From: Myxococcales bacterium
GTDB taxonomy: Bacteria; Myxococcota; Myxococcia; Myxococcales; 40CM-4-68-19
Length of the DNA stretch: 64,000 nt
Direction of reading: 5' to 3'
Assembly: GCA_036488495.1 (NCBI GenBank)
Contig: DASXHM010000125.1
Coordinates: 24,560 to 88,559, forward strand
In this document: one piece after another, positions 10,033 through 45,956 of the stretch
How positions within the stretch are numbered: the stretch's first letter is position 1
Layout of the letters: the number at the start of each line of letters is the position of its first letter
Made by a program: the position numbers and the translations under genes
Notes under the pieces: model-generated
Databases searched by the model: none
What the model was told of the DNA's origin: nothing
The model's input: only the letters and a program-made list of their open reading frames with translations

Positions 10033-10184
10033 CGCCGCGCGCTGGAAACGCTGGATGGTTGCAACGCTGGCTGCCGTCAGAATCGGTGACTGGGCGGAGG
10101 CGCGAATGGCGTTGAAGGCTCGGCTTTCGATGCCGCTGGTCTTGCCTCAAAGTTGCCAACCGCACAACCGCACAAGCCACGCTC

Positions 10185-10202
10185 GCGAACACTGTCCAGC
10201 GC
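10185..10202 (+). repeat. Copy A of the GCGAACACTGTCCAGCGC core motif
   Basis: The same 18-mer occurs at 50222 and 51433. With the upstream ACGCTC it matches copy C over 24 nt. The 40 nt to its right are the reverse complement of the sequence right of copy B. Confidence 0.7.
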
Positions 10203-10244
10203 GACCGACAACGCACGGGGACGGGTCATGCCCCCAAACTAGCG

Positions 10245-10340
10245 CGACGAGCTCCAAGTCGTAGAGCTGCGCGTAGGCGGCGACCTTGCCGCGCTGGGCC
10301 TCCAGGCTCACTCCGCGGTCGGCCTGTTTCTCCGTGCTCA
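10245..10340 (-). pseudogene. Fragment of a serine recombinase (resolvase-domain N-terminus)
   Basis: In my hand alignment, 95 nt match the 5' part of the recombinase gene at 36426 at 85 of 95 positions. The fragment encodes ...STEKQADRGVSLEAQRGKVAAYAQLYDLELV. There is no start codon and homology stops abruptly at both ends. Confidence 0.75.
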
Positions 10341-10503
10341 GGCTTTGACTCTAAGCGCGAGACGGTTGTCGCGCCCGAGGAGACAACGCGGCGGCGAAGG
10401 GGCTCGAAACGCCGTCTGGAGGGCGAATGCGGCAGGCACGGACAGTGCATTCAGGAGCAGTTCCAACCACGGGGTGTCCACCCCGCGGAGAGGGCGGCGC
10501 GCA

Positions 10504-12249
10504 GTGGTGCATCTTCTTGAAGGCTGCAACCGCGTTTTCTCGGCGGTGTTCCTGGCTGTTGCCATTTGGGGTTCCGCCTCGACACCCGCGTGGGCAGACG
10601 AGGTCGACGTTGCGGTCGACGCATTTGCCATGGCCGGAAGCAGTGTCGGGTTCACGCTCGATGAAACCGAGAAAACGATCGCGAAGGCGATCGTCCGTTG
10701 TGTCGGGCGCAAAAAGCAGCTCGTGATCTGTTCTCGCGAAGAGGTCGTCCGGCGTCTGCCTGCCGACGCTCAACCAATCGTGACGTGCATGCTGCAGGGC
10801 AGGCGCATCGATGCTTGTGCCGCGCAAGGCATGCTCCAGCGATTGCCACCGGAGGTACGCGGGACTGCCCAGTGCATCGCTGAGCAGCGACCGCTGTCCG
10901 AATGCGGTTCCGCCGAGGTGGTTCGGCGCCTGCCGCCGGAGACTCAAGCGATCGCGTCGTGCATCGCGGCGGGTCGTACGTTCGAGGCGTGTGCGGGCGA
11001 TGAGGCCGTCAGACGGTTGCCGGTCCAGACACGCGATCTCGCACCGTGCCTGGTGGAGCGCCCTGATTTCGGAACCTGCACCGCGCACGCAGCCGCGAAA
11101 ACGGCTCACAGGCAAGCGCTCGTGGTCATCGAAAAGCTCAAGGCCGATGGCCGCACCGACCTGGGGTCGGGCCCGCCGACTCCCATACGCAACATCATCA
11201 ATGTCGCGGACGGAATTCGGGAAGACGATTGGGGAAAGGTCGCCTTGTATGGTGGGGCCGAGGTCTACAAGGCGGCAGCGAAGATCGTTCTCAATATCCT
11301 TCTGACTCCTGCATTCCAGCCCTTGATCGGGCCTATCGTCGATACGATCGTACAGAACCGCGTCGACCTTTTCGCGCGTTTGGTCAAAGCGTTGAAGAAG
11401 AAGGATGTAAAGGCTGTTGGCGAGGTCGCGGTCGAGGGGTACCTCCTGATGCAGGTCGAGGTCGCATGTGCCCTACCGATGCCGAACGACATGCGAGAGT
11501 CACTTTGCGGAACGGTCGGCAAAATCATCAAGGACGTGGCTCATGTTGGCGGGGATGCCGCAGATTTGGCGAGACGGCTGATTGCGCGGCCGCTCAATAT
11601 TCCTGACACGCTCTGGGCCGAGACTCAGACCCTCCGCGAGCGAATGAGTGGAAAGAAAAGGGGCTGCGAACCCGCGCCGACCTACTACGCTTCGCATTAT
11701 GTAGGGTGCTACCATCGAGCCGCTTACCTGAAGCTGTCGGATCCGGCTCACCTGCGTGGATTGACCGGGTCTCTCAACAATACTTGCCGTCGCTATTACG
11801 ACCAGTGCTTCTTCTCAAACCGCTTCGACGGGTTATGCAATCCTCAAAGGGACATGTTTCTCAAACACGCGGACCAGCTCGCGGGCGGACTGAACGACGC
11901 AGCCGTCATTTATGCCCGGTCATTGCGTGACTCCCTTGCGGCCGCGGGCACGCAAGCTTGCGACCCGTCGTTCACAGCGGGAAGGATCAGGGACTTCACG
12001 ACGAGCTGCGTGCGTGCGCTTCACGCACAGGTGCCCCTGAAAGGTAGCGCATCAGACGATAGCTGTCACGGTGGCCAATCTTCGCCGACCGAGTCTGCGC
12101 ATTGGCTGGCCTGTCACAAGACCATCGAAGCGCTTCAGCCGCTGCGATTGGCGGCCAATCTGTGTCACGCCGCGAAGGAGGCCCTGAACAGGGCGCGCGG
12201 CATCGCCGAGGCGGCCCCACGATACAAGAGACTTGGAAAGAACAGGTGA
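10504..12249 (+). CDS. Secreted protein with four tandem Cys-pair repeats and a Cys-containing C-terminal region; no family recognised
   Basis: GTG at 10504/10507 precedes a signal peptide (VVHLLEGCNRVFSAVFLAVAIWGSASTPAWA). The track start at 10345 is Arg-rich and unlikely. Composition is lower in GC than the flanks, by eye. Confidence 0.6.
   Translation: MVHLLEGCNRVFSAVFLAVAIWGSASTPAWADEVDVAVDAFAMAGSSVGFTLDETEKTIAKAIVRCVGRKKQLVICSREEVVRRLPADAQPIVTCMLQGRRIDACAAQGMLQRLPPEVRGTAQCIAEQRPLSECGSAEVVRRLPPETQAIASCIAAGRTFEACAGDEAVRRLPVQTRDLAPCLVERPDFGTCTAHAAAKTAHRQALVVIEKLKADGRTDLGSGPPTPIRNIINVADGIREDDWGKVALYGGAEVYKAAAKIVLNILLTPAFQPLIGPIVDTIVQNRVDLFARLVKALKKKDVKAVGEVAVEGYLLMQVEVACALPMPNDMRESLCGTVGKIIKDVAHVGGDAADLARRLIARPLNIPDTLWAETQTLRERMSGKKRGCEPAPTYYASHYVGCYHRAAYLKLSDPAHLRGLTGSLNNTCRRYYDQCFFSNRFDGLCNPQRDMFLKHADQLAGGLNDAAVIYARSLRDSLAAAGTQACDPSFTAGRIRDFTTSCVRALHAQVPLKGSASDDSCHGGQSSPTESAHWLACHKTIEALQPLRLAANLCHAAKEALNRARGIAEAAPRYKRLGKNR
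10729..11079 (+). repeat. Four tandem ~29-aa coding repeats (consensus ..EVVRRLPxxxQxxxxCxxxxRxxxxC)
   Basis: CSREEVVRRLPADAQPIVTCMLQGRRIDAC / AAQGMLQRLPPEVRGTAQCIAEQRPLSEC / GSAEVVRRLPPETQAIASCIAAGRTFEAC / AGDEAVRRLPVQTRDLAPCLVERPDFGTC. Confidence 0.8.
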
Positions 12250-12307
12250 TTGGTACGTAGCACATACCGTGCCCCGCTTGGTCCACCTCAATCGACAGGA
12301 GCGTGTC

Positions 12308-13249
12308 ATGTCTCATGCGTTTCGCATATTTGTCGCGTTGCTCGTATTCATGCCTTTTCATGCGGCCCGTGCCCTGACGACGATACTGGCCGACTACCCG
12401 CGGTATGGCACGGCTCTCTCTCCCGACAAGGAGCTTGCTCTGCGCAGCGCCGCAAGGGCCGTCGCGGGTGTCCTGTTGACGGGAGGGAGCGTCGATGTGG
12501 CCATCTACGGAAACGCGGACTTCGACAACGATCGCTCGAAAGAGGTGTCGGTGAGCACGGAGCGAGCGCGCTCAGCAGAAGCCACGTTGCGTCGGATGAT
12601 TGCAGAGGAGGCAGCGCTGGTCGGTCAGTCCGGGCGTCTTTCAGCGGTGAGCATCACCTCCACGGGGCTTGGAACACTTCGACCCGTGTTCCCCCGGCCC
12701 CTGAACGAGGAACAGCGCCGCGCCAACCGCCGCATCGAGATCGTTTGGAACGCAAGTGCGGGTCCCTTGCCAGCACCGTCCGAGCCGATCTTCCAGCGTT
12801 GCATGCGCGTGTTGCCTTCCGTGAGCGTTGCAGGAACGCGCCGACGCATGGCTTGCGTTTGCAGCAAGCTCCAGCAGATAACCCCGGCGGTGGGCGACAC
12901 TCATTACGACTACCGCGCAAAGCTCCAGATGCCCGGAAGTGCCGGCTGGCCGAACCTCACTCCCGAACAGTGGAACGTCGCCGTGAACGGGTTCGTCCGA
13001 CATCTGCGGGCCGACATTCGTAGCTCCTCCAACAATTCGCCCCGGGACGCCGACTTCGCGGCGGGTCTGGTTGCACTGGACGACATGGTCGGGCGGAACA
13101 TCGACGATTTCTCCAACCAGCAGGTCGGCGGCTCAGCCACAGGGCTGCTGGATCGTGCGTTGCTTGCCGATATCCAAAATCGCATGTCGGACCCGAATCA
13201 CACTTACTCCTGCTACGCGAATTATTCGAGGAGGGACCACGATCTCTAG
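12308..13249 (+). CDS. OmpA-like (peptidoglycan-associating) domain protein with an unassigned C-terminal half
   Basis: ATG at 12308. Signal peptide MSHAFRIFVALLVFMPFHAARA. OmpA_C-like segment ...VAIYGNADFDND...STERARSAEATL...RANRRIEIVW. About 170 further residues have no motif I recognise. Confidence 0.6.
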   Translation: MSHAFRIFVALLVFMPFHAARALTTILADYPRYGTALSPDKELALRSAARAVAGVLLTGGSVDVAIYGNADFDNDRSKEVSVSTERARSAEATLRRMIAEEAALVGQSGRLSAVSITSTGLGTLRPVFPRPLNEEQRRANRRIEIVWNASAGPLPAPSEPIFQRCMRVLPSVSVAGTRRRMACVCSKLQQITPAVGDTHYDYRAKLQMPGSAGWPNLTPEQWNVAVNGFVRHLRADIRSSSNNSPRDADFAAGLVALDDMVGRNIDDFSNQQVGGSATGLLDRALLADIQNRMSDPNHTYSCYANYSRRDHDL

Positions 13250-13263
13250 AGTCTCGCCTGTGA

Positions 13264-13584
13264 CGATCTCCTGCGAGCTCCGCCCACAGTGATCGACCTA
13301 GCAGCTGCGCGACGCGACGATCTAACTGTCCCGCGTGCGGATACGAACTGCCTTTTTGCGATGAGACGGAGCCTCGCCGTCCGGATGAGATATGCCCCTG
13401 TTGCGGAATCCAGTTTGGGTATGACGACCCCCGCACGTGGATGTGGCCGGAGATTTATTTGGCGCGCCGCGGAAATTGCTGGTCGTGCGACTACGGCAGA
13501 AAACAAGATGCGCAAGCCGGTACTGACGGAGCCGTGCAACTTGTCATTGCGGCCTGCCTGGCGCACGCGGTTGTCGCTTCCTAG
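13264..13584 (+). other. Start-less ORF encoding a zinc-ribbon-type Cys-rich peptide (CPxCG...CPCCG)
   Basis: The frame is open from 13264 to TAG 13582-13584. It translates to ...NCPACGYELPFCDETEPRRPDEICPCCGIQFGYDDPRTW... with no ATG, GTG or TTG before the first Cys pair. It is absent from the ORF track. Confidence 0.3.
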
Positions 13585-17305: not shown

Positions 17306-17605
17306 GTAACAGCGGGTTCCCCGCAGTTACTTGTGCGACTCGATCCCTGGGGTTTTTGGCCGATCGAGTCGCGCAGAGCCGAGGCCCAAAAGCGAGCTAC
17401 TGTCCCGACACCTTTTAGGAATGTGGCCATAATCGCCTGTGTCGCGATCTCGCGGAACCCCTGCGTAAACGCACCAAAGGGCCCGATTCGGCACCGGATC
17501 GATACGTCACGGCATGACGGGTACCGGCACGGCCGGTTTTGTGCCCGAGCGCGCGGTCCACGTTGCACAACCGCTCTACCGCGCGGTCCACGTCGCACTT
17601 CGTTC
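17306..17605 (+). repeat. Structured dispersed repeat, full-length copy 1
   Basis: Aligns with 35687-35865 and 49140-49440. It begins with hairpin GTAACAGCGGG..CCCGCAGTTAC. Then comes a perfect 11-bp inverted repeat, GCGACTCGATC (17335-17345) and GATCGAGTCGC (17362-17372), around a 16-nt spacer. The right part holds a local duplication (CGCGCGGTCCACGT.GCAC twice). Confidence 0.85.
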
Positions 17606-21603: not shown

Positions 21604-24600
21604 GTGCACTGCTCGTCGAGCCAGATGTTGCGTCTCTCCTTCTGCGCCCTCGTGCTCGCCGCCGGCTGCGGCGGCAACGAAGCCGGGCAGGTCGCCACCG
21701 CGCCCGCGGCGAGCCTCGTGAAGCTCTCCGGAGACGGGCAGACGGGGACCGCGGGCGCAGCGCTCGCGGCGCCACTCGTCGTCCAGGTGCTGGACGCCAA
21801 CGGCAATCCGTTCGCCGGCTTCACCATCGCCTGGGCGGCGCCAGCCGGCGGCAGCATCGCGGCGGCGACCAACACCACCGGTCCGGACGGCAAGGCCTCC
21901 ATGACCGCCACGCTCGGCAAAGTGGCCGGCGCCAACAGCTTCACCGCCACCGGCGCCGGCCTCTCGGGCTCGGTCGCGACCTTCACCGAGAACGGGGCCC
22001 CCGGCGACGCAACCGCGTTCCAGGTCGCCTTTCCCATCAGCGTCGCGACCCAGGTACCGCACGCTGCGTCCGTCACCGCTCGAGACGCAAACGGAAACTC
22101 GACGAGCTTCCATGGCACGGTCGACGTGACCTTCGGCGAGCCCGACACGGGCAGCGGCGCCCTCTTGCCCGCGGGTGTCGCGCTCGACATCACGCCGACG
22201 GTCCCAGGCGCGATTCCCAACATCACCTTCGCTACCGCCGTCACGCTGCCACCGCTCCAGTCGGTCGTCGTCACCGACGCCAAGAACCCGGCGCTCACCG
22301 GCGCGCAAACGGGAATCACGGTCACTCCGGCGGGCAGCGTCACCACGCTCGCGGCTGCTCCCACCTCGTCTTCGTTCGGCGAGACCGTCGTCTTCACTGC
22401 GCAGGTGGCCGGCGTTCCCTCCGGAGTGCCCACCGGCACGGTGAGCTTCGTCGATGGCGCGACGACCCTCGGCACCGCGACCCTCATCGGTGGCACCGCC
22501 ACCTTCTCGACAGCTTCGCTCGCGGCCGGCACCCACTCGATCAGGGTGGACTACGCAGGCGACACCAACTTCGCCGCGTCGAGCTCGGCCACGCAGCCGC
22601 TCTCGTTCGTGGTCGATCCGGCGACGACCACCGTCAGCCTGGCCACGAGCGCGACGCCCGCAAGCTTCGGAGTTGCCGTGACCTTCACCGCCGCCATCGC
22701 GGTCGCCACCGGCGCGGGCACGCCCACGGGAACGGTCTCCTTCACCGACGGCGGGGCGCCCATGGCAGGTTGCAGCTCGGTCGCGCTCACGGCTCTCCTC
22801 CGGGCGACCTGCACCACGACCACGCTCGCCGTCGGGGCGCACATCATCGCCGCCACGCTGACTGCCGACGCGAACTTCCTCGGATCGTCGAACGCGGTCA
22901 CGCAGACCGTCGACAAGGGCACCACCACGACCGTCGTCACCACCAGCGGCTCGCCCTCGGTCTTCGGCAACAGCGTGACCTTCACCGCCTCGATCGCGGT
23001 GACGGCCGGCGCCGGAGCTCCCACCGGCACGGTCGCCTTCAACGACGGCGCTTTGCCGATCGCCGGTTGCACTGCAGTGGCCTTGACGGCTGGCTCGCAA
23101 GCGGTCTGCACCAGCGCGCTCGCCGCCGGATCGCACACCATCACCGCGGCGTTTGCCGGCGACGCAAACTTCGCCGGTTCGTTGGGCACCGTCCCACAGA
23201 CGGTCGACAAGGCCACCACCAGCGTGACGGTGACCAGCAGCCTCTCGCCGTCCGCGTTCGGCAACTCCGTCACCTTCACCGCGTCCATCGCGGTGCTGAC
23301 GGGCGCGGGCACGCCCACCGGAACGGTCACCTTCGCCGAAGGGGCCAGCCCGCTGATCGGCTGCGCCGGCGTCGCGCTGAATGCCGCGCTCAAGGCGACC
23401 TGCACCCTCTCCACGCTCTCGGTCGGTTCGCACGGCATCACCGCGACCCTGGCCGCCGACGCGAACTTCACCGGCTCCTCGGGCAGCGTCGTCCAGGCGG
23501 TCAACCCGGGCACCACCACCACGGCCGTTCTGTCCAGCAACCCGACGTCGTCCTTCGGCAACAGCGTGACCTTCACCGCCACCGTCGCGGTGGCCAGTGG
23601 GGCCGGCGCGCTGACGGGCACTGTCTCCTTTACCGACACCGTCGGGGCCGGCGCACCTACGGCCATCTCCGGGTGCAACGCGGTGGCCTTGACCGGCACC
23701 CTGAGCGCGACCTGCACGACCAGCACGCTCTCCGTCGCCACCCACACCATCACCGCCAACTACAGCAGCGATCCTGACTTCTCCGGCTCCTCTGGAACCG
23801 TTGCCCAAGCCGTCAATCCGGGGACGACCGGCATCGTGGTCGTCAGCAGCAGCGGCAATCCCAGCGCGCCGGTGACGTTTGGAACGTCGCTCTCCTTCAC
23901 CGCCACCGTCGCGGTCACAGCCGGCACCGGCACGCCGTCGGGAACCGTCTCCTTCGTCGATGCCGTCGGCGCCGGCAGCCCTGGTGCCATCTCGCCGGCT
24001 TGCACGAGCGTAGCGCTCAACACCACGACCCGGCAGGCGACGTGCTCGACCGCGTCGTTGACCCCTGGTGCGCACACCATCACCGCGACCTTCACCAACG
24101 CCAACGGCAACTTCGCCGGGTCGAGCGGGACCGTCACCCAGACGGTGAATCAAGCCGCCACGACCACCGTGAGCGCCAATGGGACGGCGACCTTCGGCGC
24201 CAGCGCGACCTTCAGCGCGACCGTCAGCGCCAGCGTCAGCGCCAGCGCCGGAACGCCGACCGGGACCGTCTCCTTCGTCGACACCGCCTTCGGCGTGGCG
24301 TTGTGTACGGCCACCCTGAACACGAGCAATCCGCCGACCGCCTCGTGCAGCAGCAGCGCCCTTCCCCAGGCGGGCGCGCACACCATCACCGCGACCTATA
24401 GCGGCGACGCCGACTTCGCGACCTCGTCCACCACCTTCCAAGAGACGGCCAACGAGGCCGCGACCACCACCAGCATCACCTCGACCAGCTTGAACGCGAT
24501 CTCGACGTTCGGGCAGAGCGTCACCTTCACCGCGACGGTGGCCTTCACTTCTGCCGTCGGCGGCCCGATCGGCATCGTCACCTTCACCGATCTCCCCACT

Positions 24601-26370
24601 GGCGGCACCGCTTCCAGGCTCTGCACCGCGGTGCTCGATTCGACCCACAAGGCGATCTGCACCGTCAGCAAGGTGAATGCTGGCGTCCACACCATCGCCG
24701 CCGCCTTCCTCGATGACGGCAACTTCCTCGGCTCGACGGGCACGGTCGCGCAGGAGGTCCTCGCGGCCAACGTCCTCGTCGCCGTCAACGTCGGCGGCAC
24801 GCCCACGGCGTCGTCGGCGCCCTTCGGCACGGCGGTGACCTTCACGGCGGCGCTCACGCCGATTCCTCCCACCACCGCCGTGACCGGCACGGTCGTCTTC
24901 ATGGACACCAGCACCAACACGACGCTCGGCGGCGCGAGCTGCCCCTCGACCATCGTCTCGAATCAGGCGCATTGCACCATCTCCACGCTCGACGTCGCGC
25001 ACTCGCCGCACAGCATCGTCGCGACCTTCAATCCGGATACCGGCAATTTCGTCGGTCCGGACGACTCGCCGGCCTTCACCGAGACCATCACCCAAGCAGC
25101 GACCACCACGACCTTCGCCTTCAGCCAGCCCGGCGGCGCCGGCACCCCGGTCGTCTTGACCGCGACGGTCGCGGGCAGTCCGGACGCCGTCCTGCCTCCG
25201 TCGGGGCAAGTCACGTTCACGGCCGGGGCGATCAACGCGACGTGCGCGTTGACCAGCCTCACGGCCTCTACCGCGACCTGCACCAAGTCCATCACGGTGC
25301 CGCCCGGTGCGACGACCTTTGGCGCGAGCTACGGCGGCGACGCCAACTATCTCGGCTCGAGCGCGGCCAGCCAGACGGACACGGTGCAGAGCGCGCCGCC
25401 CGGGCCGGCAGCGGCGGCCATCCTTGGCGGGCCCCTGGACGGCAAGGTCTTCATCGCAGCCGTCAGCCAGGATGCCACGCCCTCACGGGCGACCTTGTTG
25501 TACGAGCCCGCGACCTCCGTCATGACTCCCGGGCCGCAGCTCGCCGCCCCGCGCGCGTTCCTGACCGCCACGGCCATCGGCAACGGCCTCGTCCTCCTCG
25601 CCGGCGGGAACGCCTCCGGCGGCAGCACGTTCGAGCTCTGCAGCTTCGGCGCCGGCGCCTCCTGCTCGCCGACGGGCTCGCTCAGCACCCGGCGCTGCAA
25701 CGCGGCCGCCGCGCTCGAGGGCAGCTCGGTGCTGGTGGCCGGCGGCGACGACTGCTCGGCGAACGCCACCGCGCTCGCGAGCTGGGACCTGTGGAGCGCC
25801 GATGCGATCGTCTCTTCCACCGCCGCGAACCAAATGACCGAGCCGCGCGCTTCGCCGACCGTCACCGTGCTCGGCGGCGGCGCCATCCTGCTCGCGGGCG
25901 GTGCGACCGCCGACGTCTTCCAAGGCAACGCCATCGTCCGGACTGCCCGGATGTCCACCGTCCGCAGCGGCCACAGCGCGACGCTCTTGCCGGCAGGCAG
26001 CAAGGCTTGCGCGTCCGGCGCTTGCGTCTTCGTGGCCGGCGGCGTGGCTGATGCTTCCGCGCCGAGCTGGGAGATCTTCGACGTCGCGAGCGGCAGCTTC
26101 GGCCGCGCGGCCAACGCCCCCGAGCTCTCGAACCCGCTCCTCGCGCGCCACGCCACGGCGCTCCTCGCCGATGGCCGCGTCTTGCTGGCGGGCGGCGTGG
26201 CTCTGGATCGAGCCATTGCTTCCACCGAGACCTTCGACGGCATCGCCTTCAAATCCGGTCCGCCGCTGCAGAGCGCGCGGACAGGCGCCGCAGCCGCGTA
26301 CGTGCCGTCGCTGGATCTGCTGGTGCTCTCGGACGGACGCCAGCCGCCGGAGCTGATCACCGCGCCCTGA
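21604..26370 (+). CDS. Giant lipoprotein with about a dozen Ig-like repeats and a Kelch-like beta-propeller C-terminus
   Basis: Lipobox LVLAAGCGG near the N-terminus; the start could be GTG 21604 or ATG 21625. Repeats of about 95 aa carry ..ATCT.STL..G.H.ITA.Y.GD.NF.GS...V.Q.V. The C-terminal 330 aa hold repeated ..R..H.A.LL.DGRVL.AGG.. units. Confidence 0.85.
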   Translation: MHCSSSQMLRLSFCALVLAAGCGGNEAGQVATAPAASLVKLSGDGQTGTAGAALAAPLVVQVLDANGNPFAGFTIAWAAPAGGSIAAATNTTGPDGKASMTATLGKVAGANSFTATGAGLSGSVATFTENGAPGDATAFQVAFPISVATQVPHAASVTARDANGNSTSFHGTVDVTFGEPDTGSGALLPAGVALDITPTVPGAIPNITFATAVTLPPLQSVVVTDAKNPALTGAQTGITVTPAGSVTTLAAAPTSSSFGETVVFTAQVAGVPSGVPTGTVSFVDGATTLGTATLIGGTATFSTASLAAGTHSIRVDYAGDTNFAASSSATQPLSFVVDPATTTVSLATSATPASFGVAVTFTAAIAVATGAGTPTGTVSFTDGGAPMAGCSSVALTALLRATCTTTTLAVGAHIIAATLTADANFLGSSNAVTQTVDKGTTTTVVTTSGSPSVFGNSVTFTASIAVTAGAGAPTGTVAFNDGALPIAGCTAVALTAGSQAVCTSALAAGSHTITAAFAGDANFAGSLGTVPQTVDKATTSVTVTSSLSPSAFGNSVTFTASIAVLTGAGTPTGTVTFAEGASPLIGCAGVALNAALKATCTLSTLSVGSHGITATLAADANFTGSSGSVVQAVNPGTTTTAVLSSNPTSSFGNSVTFTATVAVASGAGALTGTVSFTDTVGAGAPTAISGCNAVALTGTLSATCTTSTLSVATHTITANYSSDPDFSGSSGTVAQAVNPGTTGIVVVSSSGNPSAPVTFGTSLSFTATVAVTAGTGTPSGTVSFVDAVGAGSPGAISPACTSVALNTTTRQATCSTASLTPGAHTITATFTNANGNFAGSSGTVTQTVNQAATTTVSANGTATFGASATFSATVSASVSASAGTPTGTVSFVDTAFGVALCTATLNTSNPPTASCSSSALPQAGAHTITATYSGDADFATSSTTFQETANEAATTTSITSTSLNAISTFGQSVTFTATVAFTSAVGGPIGIVTFTDLPTGGTASRLCTAVLDSTHKAICTVSKVNAGVHTIAAAFLDDGNFLGSTGTVAQEVLAANVLVAVNVGGTPTASSAPFGTAVTFTAALTPIPPTTAVTGTVVFMDTSTNTTLGGASCPSTIVSNQAHCTISTLDVAHSPHSIVATFNPDTGNFVGPDDSPAFTETITQAATTTTFAFSQPGGAGTPVVLTATVAGSPDAVLPPSGQVTFTAGAINATCALTSLTASTATCTKSITVPPGATTFGASYGGDANYLGSSAASQTDTVQSAPPGPAAAAILGGPLDGKVFIAAVSQDATPSRATLLYEPATSVMTPGPQLAAPRAFLTATAIGNGLVLLAGGNASGGSTFELCSFGAGASCSPTGSLSTRRCNAAAALEGSSVLVAGGDDCSANATALASWDLWSADAIVSSTAANQMTEPRASPTVTVLGGGAILLAGGATADVFQGNAIVRTARMSTVRSGHSATLLPAGSKACASGACVFVAGGVADASAPSWEIFDVASGSFGRAANAPELSNPLLARHATALLADGRVLLAGGVALDRAIASTETFDGIAFKSGPPLQSARTGAAAAYVPSLDLLVLSDGRQPPELITAP
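22318..25390 (+). repeat. Tandem coding repeats (Ig-like domain array) inside the giant lipoprotein gene
   Basis: Periodic recurrence of TVSFTD/FVDG...CT...L..G.H.ITA...D.NF.GS at both protein and DNA level. Boundaries are approximate. Confidence 0.6.
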
Positions 26371-26519: not shown

Positions 26520-26582
26520 ATGAAGATCAAGACCAAGGTGCACAGCGGCGCCCTGCTGATCATCGCGTCGCGCAGCTGCTAG
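26520..26582 (+). CDS. Candidate 20-aa micro-ORF (MKIKTKVHSGALLIIASRSC)
   Basis: ATG at 26520 follows GGAGAGGAGGTGAGG at Shine-Dalgarno spacing, the strongest SD I noticed in the window. TAG at 26580-26582. Too short for the ORF track. Confidence 0.3.
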   Translation: MKIKTKVHSGALLIIASRSC

Positions 26583-26766
26583 GTCGATCGATGCTTCTTC
26601 GGGCCGGCGACTTCGACCTTCACGGCTTCCATCTCGCCGGCCTTCTTCCGCGGTGTAGGTAGCGAGTACGTTCGTTCCGTCCTTAATTCCCTTCGCGTGG
26701 AGGTAAAACCGGGTCGTCGTCAGGCGGCCGCCGGCTCGAGACTACGGCCCGGGGTGACATGTTCGA

Positions 26767-32799: not shown

Positions 32800-32960
32800 C
32801 GGGTGGTGAATGCGTTGTCGTCGGCGCCATAGGTCGCGCCACGCATTGTCAGCGCCCCTGCGGTAGCTTCCGAGTTGGTCTGGATCGGCCGAAAACCCAG
32901 GGATCGAGTCGCACAAGTAACCTTGTGTGGCGAGCCGGTTCGTCGCGCACGCTGTCACGA
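32800..32960 (-). repeat. Diverged/partial inverted copy of the structured dispersed repeat
   Basis: 32884-32921 is the reverse complement of GTTACTTGTGCGACTCGATCCCTGG.GTTTT.GGCCGATC. Weaker similarity extends on both sides. Boundaries are approximate. Confidence 0.55.
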
Positions 32961-34718: not shown

Positions 34719-35519
34719 ATGACGAATTGGATCAAGCAGAACCTGTTTCGAGTCCACGCGGCGCTGCCGCTCCTGGCTGTCCTCGCCCTGGGGTCGGCCG
34801 CCAGCGCCGCTCCCGTCAAGAACATCGTGCTCGTCCATGGCGCTTTCGTGGACGGCTCGGGATGGAGGCCGGTGTACGAGATTCTGGAGCGCGATGGCTA
34901 TTCTGTCAGCATCGTCCAACAGCCGCTCACCGGCCTCGAGGAGGATGTGGCCGCGACCAGGCGCATCCTCGAACGGCAGGGCGGTCCTGCCATCCTCGTC
35001 GGGCACAGCTACGGCGGGGCGATCATCTCCGCAGCGGGCAACGAGCCGAACGTCGTCGGCCTCGTCTACATCGCCGCGCACGCGCTCGACGACGGCGAGA
35101 CAGAGAGCGCCAACGGCAAGCTCTACCCCGCTGCAGCCCGGGACGCGATAACGAAGACTGCGGACGGCTTCACCTTCATCGATCCTGCTCGCTACGGAAA
35201 GGACTTCGCCGCAGACCTGCCGCCGGCCGAAGCCGCGTTCGAGGCGGGGGCGCAAATGTTCACGGCGGCGAAGGTCTTCGCCACTCCACTCGTCAACCCC
35301 GCCTGGAAGCAGAAGCCGAGCTGGTACATGGTCGCGAAATCGGATCGAATCATCAGCCCGGACCTCGAGCGAATGTATGCCGCGCGGGCGCACAGCCACA
35401 CGGTCGAAATCGCCGGCGCCAGTCATTCGGTATACCGCTCGCACCCGAAGGAAGTTGCCGCGCTGATCGAACAGGCCGCCAAGGGCGCATTGACGGCGGA
35501 AGCCATGAACCGCCGCTAG
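34719..35519 (+). CDS. Secreted alpha/beta-hydrolase
   Basis: ATG at 34719, signal peptide, IVLVHGAF..GSGW, nucleophile elbow GHSYGG, and C-terminal ..GASHSV... Confidence 0.8.
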   Translation: MTNWIKQNLFRVHAALPLLAVLALGSAASAAPVKNIVLVHGAFVDGSGWRPVYEILERDGYSVSIVQQPLTGLEEDVAATRRILERQGGPAILVGHSYGGAIISAAGNEPNVVGLVYIAAHALDDGETESANGKLYPAAARDAITKTADGFTFIDPARYGKDFAADLPPAEAAFEAGAQMFTAAKVFATPLVNPAWKQKPSWYMVAKSDRIISPDLERMYAARAHSHTVEIAGASHSVYRSHPKEVAALIEQAAKGALTAEAMNRR

Positions 35520-35686
35520 TGCTTTCGAAACACTTCTGAAGGCTTGATTTCGGCTGAGCGACGGTCGTTGCCGCGGCGAGGTTCTTCCATGTCCCTTGCA
35601 CTAGATGAAGATGGGGCAAGGTAGCCTCCATGAATTTGATCACGAGGCTCGGCATATTCCATGCCTCGTAAATTTGGTAACGGGTG

Positions 35687-35865
35687 TAACAGCGGGTCCC
35701 CGCAGTTACTTGCGCGACTCGATCCCTAGGGTTTTGGCCGATCGTGTCGCGCAAAGCTGAGGCCCGAAAACGAGCTACTGCGCGGACACCTTTGCGGAAT
35801 GTGGCCAAGACGGCCGTGTCGCGTTCTCGCGAAATCCCTGCATAAACGCACCAAAAGGGCCCGAC
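35687..35865 (+). repeat. Structured dispersed repeat, right-truncated copy abutting the recombinase remnant
   Basis: Aligns with the first ~180 nt of copies at 17306 and 49140. Similarity ends at GGGCCCGA (35865), where recombinase-coding sequence on the opposite strand begins. Confidence 0.85.
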
Positions 35866-36426
35866 CTGGCGCGCCACAGCGCGGGCTTCGGCCTCCTGTG
35901 GGTCTTCCTCGAGGCGCTCACCGTCGACGGCTACGCGCCGGCCGTACGGCGCCTGCCCGCCCGTGTACTCGCCCCTGCTCGCCTTGTGCTGCATCGCCGT
36001 CGCCGTCCGCTCCCCGATGGCCTCCCGCTCCCACTGGCTGACCGAGGCAAGGACGTTTAGGACGAGTCTCCCTGCGGCGCTGCGGGTGTCGATCTGCTCT
36101 CCCACGCTGAGCAGGGCCGCCTTGCCGGGCGCGAAGTACCCCTCTACCAGCGTTCCGAGATCGACCACGCTTCGCGTTAGCCTGTCGAGCTTCACTACCA
36201 ACAGCGCTTCCGCCTGAGCCGCCTTCAGCACCGCTACAGCGCGCTTCAAGCCTGGGCGGTCGAGGCTTTTCGCGCTCTCGCCTGCGTCGACGGTGGTGTC
36301 GACGAGCTCCAAGTCGTACAGCTGCGCGTAGGCCGCGACCTTGCCGCGCTGGGCATCGAGGCTCACCCCTCGGTCAGCCTGCTTTTCGGTGCTCACTCGC
36401 AAGTAAGCGATGGTTCTCGTCGGCAT
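35866..36426 (-). pseudogene. Serine recombinase, 3'-truncated (resolvase domain only)
   Basis: MPTRTIAYLRVSTEKQADRGVSLDAQ... (catalytic Ser context), ..LLVVKLDRLTRS.., ..ASVSQWEREAIGERT.., then APYGRRVAVDGERLEEDPQEAEARAVAR. At that point the reading frame runs into the repeat. The rest of the 357-aa track ORF is read-through of repeat and lower-GC DNA. Confidence 0.75.
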
Positions 36427-36522
36427 GAGAGTGACGTTCGCTCTCTGCGCGGCGGAGTCAAGCGGACTCGACGCCTCCTCGGACCCACTGCTGCATTTGG
36501 CCGCAGCCCCACAGCACCGCCG

Positions 36523-38721: not shown

Positions 38722-41700
38722 ATGATCAAGAACCGCGCGTTGCCGTTTGTCGCCGCTCTCGCCCTGGGCGGCTCCTTCTCCGCCGTAGCGCAAACCGTCG
38801 CCGCGGACGGGTCGCTCGGCGTCTCGTACGCTTTTTCGCTGCCTGCCGCCCGTGGCCGCTACCAGCCGTGGCTTGCGCTCACCTATGACAGCAATGCGGG
38901 GACGACAAACTACGGCGTCGGGTGGACGTTGACGTCGAACTACGTTGAAGCAGTCACTCGCGCGACGCACAACACCGACTCGACGCAGCGTGCACGGTAT
39001 TTCCTGTCGTCGGCGGGCGGCAAAAGGCTTCTCGTCGCCGCCGGCGATAACAGCTACCGCGCTGATGTGTCGTCGAGCTACTTCTCCGTCACACCGTCCG
39101 TGACGCCTTCGGCATCGGCGACGCCGACTACATGGACAGCCGTCGACGGAGTCGGCAACAAGTACACGTACGGCTGCGTCCCGAGCACCGCGGCAACGTG
39201 CTCGCGTTGGTACCTGAAGTTCGTGCAGGATGTCGATAACAACACAACGTCGTTTGATTATGGAAGCACAGCAAGCGACGCGCCGGAAACGAGTACTTGC
39301 TCGGGAAACGCGACAGCGCCGACAGCTCTGCTCCTCCGCATTAGCTACAACTTTGCGATCGACGCGACGACGCCCGTGTCGACCGTCGAGCTCGCGTACG
39401 AGGTGTCGCCCGAGCCGTCTGTGCAAGCCATAAGCGGCTGTATGGTGACGCACGACCACCGGCTGTCTTCCGTCACTGTGAACCGTTCCGTATCTGCAGG
39501 ATCGCCGCCGCCCGTAGTAAGCCTTGGGTCATGGACCCTTGGCTACGTACATAACGGAAGCACCGATACGCACCGCGACCTGCTGGACCACATTCAGCGC
39601 AACGATCGCGCTGGCGCGCCATTGGGATTGGCGACCTCATTCGTATATGAAACGGACTTCGATCCGGTGAAGGTGCCACCTCTTGCCGCGGCAGCGGACT
39701 TCACGTTTGCGGGAGGCGACGCGTTTGGGCACCTCCCTAGCACGCAGTGCTGGTCGTGGGGATTGGGAGACGGGACTACTTGCGACGTCTCGCAGGCAGC
39801 CGTTTTCATGGACATGGACGGCGACGGTCTGCCCGACATCGTCTACGGCGGCAGCGACAGCATGGCTGGCGTAACGGCGCTTTATTGGGCGCGCAATCTC
39901 GGCAGCGCGAGCGGTCACCCCACGTTCGCAGCGATGACGCAGATTCCTGGCGCCGACGGCAAGAGCAGGACGAGTGTTCCCGATCCGCGTGCTGCGCCCT
40001 GGCCGGGCTTCATCTCTACGCTCAACAGCGATGGCACGACACCTACCGGGGAGGAAGCACATGGGTATTACAGTGGGCACACGCTAAAGGGCAATAACGG
40101 CGGCCCCTGGGTTGCCATGGGACCGAACAACTTCACCGGGACGTGCCCGGCCAACGGTAAGTTCGCGAATGGTACCCCCTGCCCGCCGCCGCCCATCGGC
40201 AACGGCGCTCTCGGCATGGTGGCAGATTTCAACGGCGACGGTGCGCCTGATCTCATCTCAAGCGGCTGTGGCGGAAGCGCGCGAGCATTGTCGGTGTGGT
40301 TTGCACAGATTGATCCGACCACGGGAGCACTATCGTATGCGGATGCGCCCTCGTGCGTGGATGCGACAGCGGCGTTCAACCAGATGCAGACGATGTACCA
40401 AGTGCAGCAGCTTCCGGTCAGCTACACGATGCCGGGGCCGCGTCTGTTCACCGGCAGCGGGACGACAACCAACACTTGGATTCAACTCGCTGACTTCGAC
40501 GGTGACGGCGTGCTCGATTTTATCATCGCGGATAGCAACTCCGCGACGTGGTTCGTTTATCCCGGCTATTCGCCGGGGAAAGACACGAGCGGACACACGC
40601 TTTGGGCCTTCGCCGCGACTCCGCTGCCGAACGTCGCCGCCGGTTACGCCTGGCCGCAAAATGCTGCGATGAGCCCAAACATCTACCCAATCCGCTCCGT
40701 CATGGGCCCTATGGCCGCTGCCGTGTACGACGACCCGAGTCATCCGCCTTACGATCCATCGCAACTGCTCGGTGGAAAGACGATCATCGATTTTGTCGAC
40801 GTCAACGGCGACGGTCTGCCCGATAGAGTGGTCGCATTTCAATGGTCCGACGGCAGCGCTCTCCACAATTCCTGGTTCGTCGACTACAACACGGGTACCG
40901 GCTTCGTCGAAACGCAAGGCCCGTCGAACGTCCGAGGCTTATTTCAAAAGGATCTTCCGTACCAGGACGCGTGGGTCACTACGCACGATTCGGCGCTGTT
41001 CGACCTGAATCGCGACGGGCGTCCGGATCTGATCATCCGGTCGGGTCCGAATAGCGTTACGTCCGCGGGCAACACCGCCTGCACGGGTCCCGGCGATTCC
41101 ATGAAGGTCTGGTACGGTTCGCCTACAGGGTTGAACGGCAACAGCGGTTTTGTCGAAGGGCCGTGCCTCGACAATCCGACCGGGGTGCCGAGCTGGCGAC
41201 CGTTCGATAACTACACGGACCTCGACGATCTCTCGACATCAAAGATGTACAACGAAGGCTTTGCGGATCTCGACGGCGATGGTGTTCTCGATTTCTACCG
41301 CGCACCCGGTCCGTCGGAGGGGATGCCGATCAACCATTGGTACTTCTATCGAGGGACGCATCAAAAGAGACGCTCCGACCTGCTTGTCTCCATGACGAGT
41401 TCGTCTGGGTCGACGCAGACGTACCATTGGGCGCCGTCAACGGCATACAGCGCCGGAATTTCGGGTTCGCCCATGGTTGGAGACGTGGTCGCGGCGATCG
41501 ATAGCTCCGGCCCTGCGATGTCGCCCCTGACGGTGACGTATTCCTACGCGGGCCTGAAGGCGGTGAAGGTCTGGGACGATCCAACCCAATCGCAAAATGA
41601 ATCGCTTGGCTTCACGGTGGGCTACGCGACGCCCAGCGTTGGCGGCCTCGTCTCACAGACGACCTATGGATCGACGCACGATACGCAAGGCCTCGTCGTT

Positions 41701-42891
41701 AGTGCGGCGAAAGGGACCGCCACGCCTCCATGGACGAACGGCGCCGGCGTCATCGAATCCTCGGCCGCTACATGGAGCTCGAGCAGCATCGGCAGCAACG
41801 TCATCGCGGGCACGACGTATCTGTATCCCACGTATGTGTACCCTTCCGCGCAGACGCGGAGCCGGACGGAGATGGGGGCGGCCCCCGTGTCGGTGCAGAC
41901 AGCGCAGCCGCCTGACGCTTACGGCAACATCCTAACCATGACCACCACGCCGGATGCGTTGCCGAGCGCGTCGACGGCCCCGTCGCTGACGATCAAACGC
42001 GCTTTCGCGACCGGTCCTAAGTCGGCGTGTCCCTCGTGCGTCATCGACGAGGCGATCACCGCCTCGAACGGGACTGAGCTTGGCCACAGCTATTACCATT
42101 ACGACTTAGCGGTCGGTGTCAATGTGAGCCCGAGCTCCGCCACAGCGGACTCAGTTTCCACTGTCGTCGCAAAGGGCCATCTTTCGTACGTCCAGACAGC
42201 GTGCCAGTCATGCGCCAATCCATATGAGGTCGCGTCCGCGACGTACTATTCGACGAGCGGAAACGTCCTGCGCAGTGTGAGATCGTACTCAGGCCAGGCG
42301 ATCGCGTCCGTGACGGAGGAAATCACTTACGATCCCTTCGACGACCTGTCGATCATTTCGCGCGTGGCAAAAGATGCGCCGCCGCCGCCCACGGGGACCG
42401 CGCCGCCTCAGCCGCCGTACACCTCGCTAACGACGACTTTCACGTATACGAGCTATGGCGACGTCGCGAGCGTCGTCGGGCCCGTCCTCGGGGGCACGGC
42501 GCCGACTAGCACGCCGCTGCACGCGATGGCGCTGCATCGTTCGTACGACCCTGCGGGAAGGGTGGTGGCAGAGTCGGACCAACCTCTCGGGACGACCATC
42601 ACACATGCGCTTCGCGCGTTCGAGTACGTCCTTCCCACGGTCACCACGCCTGGTGCGGTGAAGAGCTACGTCTTCGCATCGGATCCGCCATCATTCACCG
42701 CCGGAGGGCCGGTTTCGCCGTCGAACGATTCGACGCAGGTCATCACCTATTTCGACGCGCTCGGCCGCGCAGTGCAGGAACGAGTTAGGCTCGGGTCCGG
42801 CGCCGCCCCGAAATCGACCGGTGGGAATGTTATCACAAGTCGCTCCCCACCCAATATTCCGTCCGCAGCAACGTGCTCCTTGACGGGCTAG
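38722..42891 (+). CDS. SpvB/TcB-like protein: signal peptide, SpvB N-domain, FG-GAP/VCBS-type propeller repeats, C-terminal YD/RHS repeats
   Basis: MIKNRALPFVAALALGGSFSAVAQ signal. GSLGVSYAFSLPAARGRYQPWLALTYDSNAGTTNYGVGWTL (SpvB-like). Six DxDGDGxxD-type loops (DMDGDGLPDIV, DFNGDGAPDLI, DFDGDGVLDFI, DVNGDGLPDRV, DLNRDGRPDLI, DLDGDGVLDFY). Late YD repeats (YDPAGRVVAESD, YFDALGRAVQERV). Confidence 0.8.
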   Translation: MIKNRALPFVAALALGGSFSAVAQTVAADGSLGVSYAFSLPAARGRYQPWLALTYDSNAGTTNYGVGWTLTSNYVEAVTRATHNTDSTQRARYFLSSAGGKRLLVAAGDNSYRADVSSSYFSVTPSVTPSASATPTTWTAVDGVGNKYTYGCVPSTAATCSRWYLKFVQDVDNNTTSFDYGSTASDAPETSTCSGNATAPTALLLRISYNFAIDATTPVSTVELAYEVSPEPSVQAISGCMVTHDHRLSSVTVNRSVSAGSPPPVVSLGSWTLGYVHNGSTDTHRDLLDHIQRNDRAGAPLGLATSFVYETDFDPVKVPPLAAAADFTFAGGDAFGHLPSTQCWSWGLGDGTTCDVSQAAVFMDMDGDGLPDIVYGGSDSMAGVTALYWARNLGSASGHPTFAAMTQIPGADGKSRTSVPDPRAAPWPGFISTLNSDGTTPTGEEAHGYYSGHTLKGNNGGPWVAMGPNNFTGTCPANGKFANGTPCPPPPIGNGALGMVADFNGDGAPDLISSGCGGSARALSVWFAQIDPTTGALSYADAPSCVDATAAFNQMQTMYQVQQLPVSYTMPGPRLFTGSGTTTNTWIQLADFDGDGVLDFIIADSNSATWFVYPGYSPGKDTSGHTLWAFAATPLPNVAAGYAWPQNAAMSPNIYPIRSVMGPMAAAVYDDPSHPPYDPSQLLGGKTIIDFVDVNGDGLPDRVVAFQWSDGSALHNSWFVDYNTGTGFVETQGPSNVRGLFQKDLPYQDAWVTTHDSALFDLNRDGRPDLIIRSGPNSVTSAGNTACTGPGDSMKVWYGSPTGLNGNSGFVEGPCLDNPTGVPSWRPFDNYTDLDDLSTSKMYNEGFADLDGDGVLDFYRAPGPSEGMPINHWYFYRGTHQKRRSDLLVSMTSSSGSTQTYHWAPSTAYSAGISGSPMVGDVVAAIDSSGPAMSPLTVTYSYAGLKAVKVWDDPTQSQNESLGFTVGYATPSVGGLVSQTTYGSTHDTQGLVVSAAKGTATPPWTNGAGVIESSAATWSSSSIGSNVIAGTTYLYPTYVYPSAQTRSRTEMGAAPVSVQTAQPPDAYGNILTMTTTPDALPSASTAPSLTIKRAFATGPKSACPSCVIDEAITASNGTELGHSYYHYDLAVGVNVSPSSATADSVSTVVAKGHLSYVQTACQSCANPYEVASATYYSTSGNVLRSVRSYSGQAIASVTEEITYDPFDDLSIISRVAKDAPPPPTGTAPPQPPYTSLTTTFTYTSYGDVASVVGPVLGGTAPTSTPLHAMALHRSYDPAGRVVAESDQPLGTTITHALRAFEYVLPTVTTPGAVKSYVFASDPPSFTAGGPVSPSNDSTQVITYFDALGRAVQERVRLGSGAAPKSTGGNVITSRSPPNIPSAATCSLTG

Positions 42892-45800: not shown

Positions 45801-45956
45801 AGCGGCATACAGATAACTCCTGCCGGTGTATTCGGTCCTGATTTCTACGATGCCACAGCCGGAACCTGGTGGGATGTTACAACTGCTGGACAATGGGCCG
45901 ATCACGTGATGAGATACACCCCGTTCTTCGGGAGCGGATTCCCCGTTTTGCACTGA
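42873..45956 (+). CDS. RHS/YD-repeat protein (TcC-like) with an unassigned C-terminal payload domain
   Basis: Many YD repeats (YDALGRRTQV, YDALGRLTAE, YDSQSRLISI...). Core end ...AYSPALRRFLQADTIDARRYTYAFGDPLNFTDPSGR. GTG start overlaps the upstream stop by 19 nt. Confidence 0.85.
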   Translation: MLLDGLGRAVVSFEPYFSPTGAYVDPRNSSELTTARLHATVAAYDVESRPTCTVYEPVAGTIPIVPSGCSSSFAEGPTYSRATRMTYGVDSSFDGRPYMTVDMVQSWANPGSPASRVYLDAAGHARYARTPAGTYEASQYDALGRRTQVLRTSGPPGSSSPVKNAWTYDERARLASEFNDAGNYRGYSYLPTGEIAQVIQSTNSQPTIADTLAVWSVFSIGSLGRIVERDDYRHETASDCNASALQEDQTTYQYDVPYKNQTGRYDYTAGHLTAAMTGTPDAPRTTVAVGYDSHGSAVLRDEWFGASQSAHSVAETRGLDGRLLARVMTSPFLNEYNAAGQFGYSVGYDSAGNPIQVNTASLDGNGNALPFDGSGDIYWLAGTNGADPATGAYDALGRLTAERWDGGVVQKSRSFLSGSNLPSSYSTTLSGGANVYTVSGMTWQGSLLKTYSLSSNWEGGGASYSAAYDIDAHLQQWSAAPQGQTGAAQQKFAEAYGFNLENLKTVNVTNSLGFSVGSTYDYADATSPERVTSISALGATTTDTFVYDRRGRGLVVQHKLNASQAVPQDSYEYDSQSRLISIARLGSKLESLDYDGAGDLASRTFPSGSAEVARYYVGDDLTLVDHGGTGNVGYAHIRLGRLRIPSVYAKSGTLPNVIYYHRDRRNDVVATTTSSATGRGLIGLSYRYLPSGAIDKIVNAAGSPASETDPAASELGFIGGLKLSGGLVHLKARAYSPALRRFLQADTIDARRYTYAFGDPLNFTDPSGRAPGQKVPLPTVTSGDQGGGCTTPACQGLSNQPASTGGIDLSGLGSGLANLGSGIADWFRNQAAQTGGVNQDSTDATLAVAGLQASLMSNVTSVASTAWASAKQAGSWMAQHPVATGIAVVGIAAVITKAAELGATPPALSEVVSESQAYEAKIAGILNEHLETALQNFELTPAQEAAAARNPALNAMFEGTQIDALVKEYARFDPRLSGIQITPAGVFGPDFYDATAGTWWDVTTAGQWADHVMRYTPFFGSGFPVLH
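45179..45956 (+). other. C-terminal payload (toxin-tip) region of the RHS protein
   Basis: Everything after the DPSGR core terminus: a Gly-rich segment, one hydrophobic helix, and a terminal ~110-aa module ...GTQIDALVKEYARFDPRLSGIQITPAGVFGPDFYDATAGTWWDVTTAGQWADHVMRY.... Visibly lower GC than the core. Confidence 0.6.

Follow-up and report, generated by a model that had tools for sequence, protein, structure and literature searches.

Short motifs that stand beside recombinase genes are known from several bacterial systems. In SCCmec and composite SCC arrays, which encode CcrAB or CcrC, direct repeats of 15-18 bp (ISS/DR) bound the elements and serve as attachment sites of the serine recombinases, and the invertible promoters of Salmonella (hin/hix), E. 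coli (fimS) and Bacteroides (Mpi) are promoter segments of hundreds of bp, bounded by inverted repeats and found in opposite orientations. Decayed scars of mobile elements or recombinases, with joints of illegitimate (MMBIR/FoSTeS-type) recombination, are described at island borders. Sigma-70-type promoters of leaderless or short-leader genes in high-GC bacteria carry a -10 box (TAnnnT) 6-7 nt before the start codon.

The locus studied here, site A, shares features with each of these systems. It lies in a window of 64 kb (the whole stretch of DNA analysed), which comes from a Myxococcales metagenome-assembled genome and is chromosomal, with a cytochrome c oxidase operon at 2-5.3 kb. The original prediction regarded an 18-mer core at this site, joined to an inverted flank and to a piece of a serine recombinase gene, as a present or former site-specific recombination site. 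The observation has been confirmed and the interpretation is supported in part, in that the pieces belong together and with a recombinase. The reading preferred here, at a probability of about 55%, is that site A represents a non-functional rearrangement scar of a small accessory module, in which the element U1 containing the 18-mer most likely served as a promoter or operator.

Results

The 18-mer GCGAACACTGTCCAGCGC has three exact matches in the window, at 10185 (A), 50222 (B) and 51433 (C), all on the + strand, and the core at site A is hence the third copy that had been predicted. A count of three was reached by none of 100 shuffles (mean 0.18). The features of site A and of the related loci are listed in Table 1.

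Table 1. Positions of site A and of related features in the window
Feature	Position	Strand	Description
U1 left part at site A (copy A)	10179..10207	+	ACGCTC + 18-mer core (10185-10202) + GACCG
Inverted 5' fragment of a gene-X copy	10201..10244	-	reverse complement of 50244-50287, 86% over 44 nt
Serine recombinase relic, internal, codons 11-42	10245..10340	-	no start codon; in-frame TAG upstream
Lower-GC islet	10341..13580	+	GC 0.595-0.65; ORFs 10504-12249 (581 aa) and 12308-13249 (313 aa)
32-nt relic, right side of islet	13291..13322	-	31/32 to reverse complement of 26558-26589
Truncated serine recombinase gene	35866..36426	-	residues 1-186 of ~225; Pfam Resolvase aa 6-153
Upstream region of recombinase gene	36427..36462	-	TTGACT, then imperfect palindrome GAGAGCGA-ACG-TCACTCTC abutting ATG
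U1 copy B (right part)	50222..50258	+	core + CACGGCTAGCCTGG; -10-like TAGCCT 50246-50251; ATG at 50258
Gene X	50258..50640	+	annotated start TTG 50277; tblastn of L076 X protein, two frames
U1 copy C, most complete	51427..51470	+	ACGCTC + core + CACCGCTAGCCTGG; then GAGG, GTG at 51489
PQQ-like beta-propeller gene, frameshifted, downstream of copy C	51489..52302	+	Pfam PQQ_2 in both ORFs, 51489-51974 and 51670-52302
Motif string, query form			ACGCTCGCGAACACTGTCCAGCGCCACSGCTAGCCTGG

Site A displays a patchwork of three pieces. On the left, 10179-10202 is identical to 51427-51450 over 24 nt including ACGCTC, as predicted, and pairwise BLAST extends the match with copy C to 28/29 (10179-10207 vs 51427-51455). 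The following ~40 nt, described earlier as an inverted copy of the flank of B, align with the reverse complement of 50244-50287 (10201-10243; 38/44 positions, one gap; E 2e-5 in the whole-window self-BLAST, 9e-9 pairwise), and TGGGGGCATGASCCGTCCCCG occurs in just two copies in the window. On the minus strand this segment shows a -10-like TAGTTT (10241-10236), 6 nt, and an ATG (10229-10227) in frame with the conserved N-terminus of gene X, from which about ten codons (MTRPRALSVA) run up to the core. The third piece, rightly assigned to the N-terminal part of a serine recombinase, matches 36300-36395 at 86/96 positions (89.6%; E 4e-28 in the window self-BLAST), and 30 of its 32 amino acids are identical to residues 11-42 of the gene at 36426 (tblastn). 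It is 84-85% identical to homologues in three other genomes (L058, L076, L057), lacks codons 1-10 and 43-225, lies 42 nt from the motif, and shows similarity to the catalytic domain of Pfam PF00239 (Resolvase) with no intact frame.

Read from the sequence, the joint between recombinase and segment (CTCGTCG meeting CGCTAG) is blunt, and the joint between core and segment shows a 2-nt GC overlap, the inverted match extending over the last 2 nt of the core. In copy B, 4-5 nt (CACG/G) lie between core and segment. When mapped on the putative ancestral module, both joints of A fall in the 5 nt between core and CTAG. The same arrangement at A is seen in L059, a second assembly of this genome with 99.97% identity over 17.2 kb, and the arrangements at A, B and C in L059, L031 and L032, which may derive from the same or closely related samples, are identical to the window. 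The arrangement is thus not an assembly artefact, as other assemblies show it too.

Site A is located between a 165-aa gene on its left and a MacB-like permease gene, and it marks the left edge of a lower-GC islet as had been noted, the GC content being 0.595-0.653 over 10-14 kb vs ~0.68 on both sides. The ORFs of the islet, called as in L059, gave weak OmpA/ZorB-like matches and otherwise no family in Pfam, NCBIfam or PHROG; the 313-aa product of 12308-13249 displays a weak OmpA/MotB-like match. On the far side of the islet, 13291-13322 is an inverted copy of the end of a 20-codon ORF at 26520-26582 (+), covering its final 7 codons and the 3' flank. This small ORF has a strong Shine-Dalgarno sequence (MKIKTKVHSGALLIIASRSC) and follows a giant repeat-protein gene (21604-26370; product of about 1588 aa, called Big_3_5 by JGI), in which units of ~297 bp are repeated in tandem at 22.6-24.3 kb with 72-83% identity. 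A search for an empty site by means of the 165-aa gene gave a sole longer homologous locus (L060), which adjoins Rhs cassettes and is not syntenic, the similarity ending at the stop codon.

Copy C unites a left part common to A with a right part common to B (50222-50258 matches 51433-51470 at 36/38, self-BLAST), so that U1 (~45 nt) can be written as ACGCTC-GCGAACACTGTCCAGCGC-CACSGCTAGCCTGG. The 18-mer is the overlap of the 29-nt repeat of A and C and the 38-nt repeat of B and C, so that its limits follow from where these two partial copies, A and B, are broken. It has no special edge of its own, and what was called the 'edge of the core' is in part a product of how the core was defined.

U1 is most likely the promoter or operator region of the genes downstream, as suggested by its same orientation and similar spacing to the start codons of two genes, the core ending 38 nt before TTG at 50277 (B) and 39 nt before GTG at 51489 (C). 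In C, GAGG stands 5 nt upstream of the GTG. TAGCCT (B) or TAGTTT (A) lies 6 nt before an ATG, and T1, A2 and T6 of the -10 hexamer are conserved in TAGCCT. Against the promoter part of the reading count a strict sigma-70 consensus scan, which called no promoter at any of the three copies, and a weak -35 match (CGAACA, best 3/6). The core is identical in 3/3 copies and homologous flanks differ by 10-14% (p about 0.02-0.06 under equal divergence), a hint of mild constraint that would fit a regulatory element. Readings of the core as a sigma-54 promoter or a LexA box were rejected, as spacing and half-sites do not fit on inspection of the sequence. An RNA structure at the motif was likewise rejected; Rfam gave no match for the whole window at gathering threshold or for 49-51.7 kb at E<=1, and fold z-scores were -0.7 to +0.8 relative to shuffles. 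No tRNA gene is involved.

The nature of the 41-44-nt flank became evident from gene X. The X protein of L076 matches 50346-50525 and 50524-50640 in two reading frames (tblastn, E 7e-25), and the N-termini of the X family, MKASFADLARRRL, align with (TTG)SLAALARRRL of the window, which begins inside the flank; on these grounds the flank is identified, by sequence comparison, as the 5' end of X. The family (128-136 aa, P0127-P0130) is uncharacterised and has no Pfam or PHROG match. At B, X carries a 1-nt insertion relative to A after the ATG and a second frameshift near 50524; as these are kept in other assemblies (L031, L032), X at B is probably a pseudogene. Both X and the PQQ-like gene, which follow B and C, are frameshifted in all assemblies, which suggests that the whole 50-52.3 kb stretch is decaying. 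Copy B itself stands between divergent small genes. Its divergent neighbour (49967-50131, -) encodes a 54-aa acidic protein with an NPNNDAY...NRANQLNP motif, whose gene shares ~48 nt at 89% identity with hypothetical genes of Burkholderia plasmids (AP022311.1, NZ_AP022320.1).

A 1.36-kb contig (L076) connects X with the recombinase. Here X lies 58 nt beyond the stop codon of the closest recombinase homologue (P0001, 89% identical), on the opposite strand and convergent with it, and the region beyond the recombinase matches window 50334-50588. Since B gives the core followed by X, and L076 gives X followed by a convergent recombinase, a module of the order motif, X and convergent recombinase can be proposed. 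With such an order, a core on the + strand should be followed on its right by a minus-strand recombinase gene whose 3' end is the one closer to the core, and the relic at site A has this orientation. The adjacency is seen in this one contig and was not shown by the other X and recombinase loci examined, and no intact copy of the whole U1-X-recombinase module was recovered; both facts count against module decay at A.

The recombinase belongs to a family of ~225 aa (P0001-P0120; 7910 matches at E<=1e-20), with thousands of metagenomic homologues at 75-89% identity and top matches of 80-89% across many metagenomes. Its best NCBIfam matches are CcrB, CcrC and XisF, over the first ~160 aa only, and its PHROG match is phrog_95 "integrase". 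Among annotated phage proteins, large serine integrases align with it over their first ~225 residues at ~33% identity, and the zinc-ribbon/coiled-coil region of large serine recombinases is absent from the family. The ORF at 35353-36426 (357 aa; Pfam PF00239 Resolvase, E 1e-31) was considered as a large serine recombinase and rejected, as the family has 225 aa and the tail beyond residue 186 is a read-through into a ~200-bp repeat. The gene at 36426, used previously for comparison, is therefore not intact and comprises just residues 1-186 of ~225. The window does not encode the final 39 residues of the family anywhere and contains two dead recombinase copies and no live one.

Gutted or internally deleted copies of the family also occur in unrelated genomes. 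In L062, the upstream region and codons 1-46 are fused to the last ~11 codons (F1), with a separate central fragment nearby, and a second copy in L057 is reduced to residues ~118-126 and 204-225. A break hotspot at codons 42-46 was considered and rejected, as the deletions in these two are of the ordinary internal type and end elsewhere. Over the ~36-40 nt that precede the recombinase ATG, conservation among distant genomes is ~80% (L062 6957-6993 and 7964-8000; L076 200-235), and this stretch contains the palindrome of Table 1, also given as GAGAGCGA-ACG-TCGCTCTC, directly before the ATG. This region is likely a promoter with an autoregulatory or recombinase-binding site, and on sequence grounds its palindrome would be a better candidate binding site for the recombinase than the 18-mer.

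The repeat that abuts the recombinase gene and truncates it at residue 186 is a member of a family of ~200-280 bp (17306-17570, 35686-35864, 49140-49422; partial inverted copy 32880-32921). Its copies are 87-90% identical and contain a perfect 15-bp hairpin (TTGTGCGACTCGATC, 16 nt, GATCGAGTCGCACAA). Rfam gave no match at gathering threshold in the window, nor below it for the one copy within 49-51.7 kb; the repeat may be a MITE-like or REP-like element.

A low-GC accessory stretch at 46-53 kb, which harbours copies B and C, lies downstream of a Tc/Rhs-type toxin locus with ORFs 38722-42891 (1389 aa; SpvB, TcdB_midN and FG-GAP domains) and 42873-45956 (1027 aa; RHS-associated core). The toxin locus is followed by a pentapeptide-repeat protein and an Imm26 immunity gene in low-GC DNA (a range including 48403-48864).

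The motif was further examined for properties of a recombination site. The best dyad symmetry of the 41-nt copy C (7/11) was reached by 1112 of 2000 shuffles, i.e. chance level. No core-like sequence (up to 3-4 mismatches) was found within several kb of the recombinase genes in at least 12 homologous loci (L057, L058, L061-L076). The exact 18-mer occurs at 29 loci in genomes (596 Gb), 23 in metagenomes and 1 in viral sequences (IMG/VR), in collections that do not include the source genome; the flanks are unrelated in 53/53, so that these matches fit chance. The segment pattern GGGGGCATGANCCGTCCCCG had no matches in viral contigs, and plasmid BLAST with both regions returned nothing relevant. 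The link between motif and recombinase is real, as the flank is the 5' end of X and X adjoins the recombinase in L076; the further step to a recombination site finds no support in the dyad analysis, the homologous loci or the public matches.

No functional cognate recombinase lies nearby, there being only residues 1-186 (36426-35866) and 11-42 (10340-10245), and no alternative arrangement occurs in L059, L031 and L032, perhaps from the same or closely related samples. No inverted core that could act as an IS or MITE terminal inverted repeat is present in the window, and a search around the islet and before the recombinase gene gave no further repeats. The segment is also not bounded by inverted repeats, with all cores on the + strand, and both orientations were not seen at one locus, the opposite orientations being those of different loci. 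The possibility that the segment and reverse-complemented core form the natural 3' flank of the recombinase was rejected, no similarity being present downstream of seven homologues. Beyond the right end of the segment at B, a stretch resembles an inverted, degenerate core in 11/18 positions; this reading was rejected also, since the stretch codes for the conserved ARRRL of X.

Discussion

The homologies, orientations, X-recombinase neighbourhood, spacing and truncations recorded above would be accommodated by the following order of events. The ancestral module would have comprised the ~45-nt U1 and the small gene X on one strand, and a convergent ~225-aa serine recombinase gene. At A, the interval from the core to codon 42 of the recombinase would have been lost except for the first 44 nt of the X unit, which now lie inverted in between, and the 5' end of the recombinase (codons 1-10 and promoter) would have been replaced at 10341 by the low-GC islet. 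This may have come about in two steps, the block reaching from the segment up to and including recombinase codon 43 being inverted and a deletion following, or by a single template switch that copied 44 nt from the opposite strand and deleted about 1.1 kb. Illegitimate recombination would be favoured over precise site-specific exchange, as the joints have 0-2 nt microhomology, and inversion in place is disfavoured by the lack of a second, inverted site, all cores being on the + strand.

The decay of a module in place is also consistent with the truncated recombinase copy at 36 kb, the frameshifts in X and the PQQ gene, and the second short relic across the islet. Against it counts the position of both joints of A within the 5 nt between core and CTAG, a coincidence that calls for one complex event or for a site prone to breakage.

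Another reading considers site A as 'filler' DNA, its 29-, 44- and 96-nt pieces having been copied from a module elsewhere during insertion or repair at the islet border, with no module ever present at A. The pieces are indeed short, contiguous and 86-97% identical to other window sequences, a comparable piece of 32 nt, inverted and taken from an unrelated small ORF, lies on the other side of the islet, and the joints show 0-2 nt microhomology. However, the orientation of the recombinase relative to the core fits a module in situ, which random capture does not predict, and 10-14% divergence implies that the donor is not any copy present in the window. Filler capture is rated as distinctly unlikely; the present data do not separate it from decay in place, and both are scars. 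A chance origin of the similarities in GC-rich DNA, named beforehand as a finding that would overturn the prediction, draws on a genome of 65-70% GC and on the 53 unrelated exact matches of the 18-mer in public collections. It is excluded by the shuffles (0/100; three copies in 64 kb vs 0.18 expected) and by BLAST E-values of 2e-5 to 4e-28 within the window, and the flank is moreover recognisable as the start of gene X, which leaves its probability practically negligible.

The idea closest to the original prediction is that the 18-mer with a CACSG spacer serves, or once served, the 225-aa family as crossover or attachment site, and that the joints at A arose by aberrant reactions with pseudo-sites in the recombinase gene and X. 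The three exact direct copies, the better conservation of the core than of its flanks, the GC shift at A, the relic 42 nt away, the location of both joints within 5 nt after the core and the integrase-type scores of the family (phrog_95, CcrB/XisF-like) all speak for it, as does the hybrid look of C, which has 6 nt on the left as in A and 20 nt on the right as in B. The shared left flank is, however, only 6 nt, a weak match, and the borders of homology lie at different edges of the 18-mer. The motif has dyad symmetry not above chance, is absent beside at least 12 homologous recombinase loci (up to 3-4 mismatches) and has no related copies in the collections scanned (596 Gb of genomes, metagenomes and IMG/VR); the window lacks an intact recombinase, other assemblies show no structural variant, the recombinase gene possesses its own conserved upstream palindrome, and the 40-kb interval between A and B holds high-GC housekeeping-like genes. 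A crossover site is therefore unlikely. A more ambitious version takes U1-X-recombinase as an undescribed small mobile module of Myxococcota with a ~225-aa 'mini' large serine recombinase, in which the 18-mer and 5-nt spacer would be the att or crossover site, the joints at A aberrant cleavage, and the three direct copies successive integrations; it is more doubtful than either the plain crossover site or filler capture. Very improbable is an invertible promoter switch (fimS-like or hin-like), in which the 41-44 nt segment would be flipped by the neighbouring recombinase. The segment does carry a -10-like box and a start codon and occurs in both orientations relative to the core, but 3/3 cores are on the + strand with none inverted, at A the segment is bordered on its other side by coding sequence of the recombinase, at B the possible right arm (11/18) coincides with the codons for the conserved ARRRL of X, and every assembly has a single orientation. 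An inversion of 41-44 nt in place is too short for recombinase synapsis, given the synapse geometry of Hin, Gin and Fim, and 44 nt is far below the spacing of known invertases, which makes a recombinase-driven inversion of 44 bp in place physically implausible.

As a decayed small accessory module in a Myxococcales chromosome, site A is an ordinary kind of feature and carries little weight alone. It does serve as a warning that a conserved core with a breakpoint at its edge can be the mere overlap of two partial repeats. Of wider interest are the abundant and conserved ~225-aa serine recombinases, each resembling the first third of a large serine integrase, and the linkage of this family to the small uncharacterised gene X. 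If the motif were the site of the family after all, it would be a starting point for characterising a new compact recombinase system.

Comparison with known systems

The 18-nt exact direct repeat, present three times, the N-terminal matches (160 aa) of the recombinase to CcrB, CcrC and XisF, and the one motif copy with hybrid-looking flanks recall the SCCmec arrays. Unlike in SCCmec, the local family has only ~225 aa and no zinc-ribbon and coiled-coil region, the motif is absent beside homologous genes elsewhere and no empty site is known, and the repeats enclose 40 kb with mostly core-like genes and 1.2 kb, neither of which resembles a cassette. With the hin, fimS and Mpi switches, site A shares a promoter-like segment in opposite orientations beside a short motif and a recombinase gene. 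It differs from them in that the segment has no flanking inverted repeats and measures 44 nt vs hundreds of bp, the two orientations belong to different loci, and the recombinase is dead.

Resemblance to the sigma-70-type promoters of high-GC bacteria lies in TAGCCT/TAGTTT of X 6 nt before the ATG and in the same element at 38-39 nt from two start codons; in contrast to them, U1 has a weak -35 and no call in the strict consensus scan. From the scars described at island borders, site A is set apart by a mechanism that is read from the joints only and by a parent module, U1-X-recombinase, that is itself undescribed. It resembles them in its gene fragments without start or stop codons, in joints with 0-2 nt microhomology and a small inverted piece taken from beside the breakpoint, as in MMBIR/FoSTeS-type events, and in the GC shift beside A with further truncated and frameshifted copies nearby.
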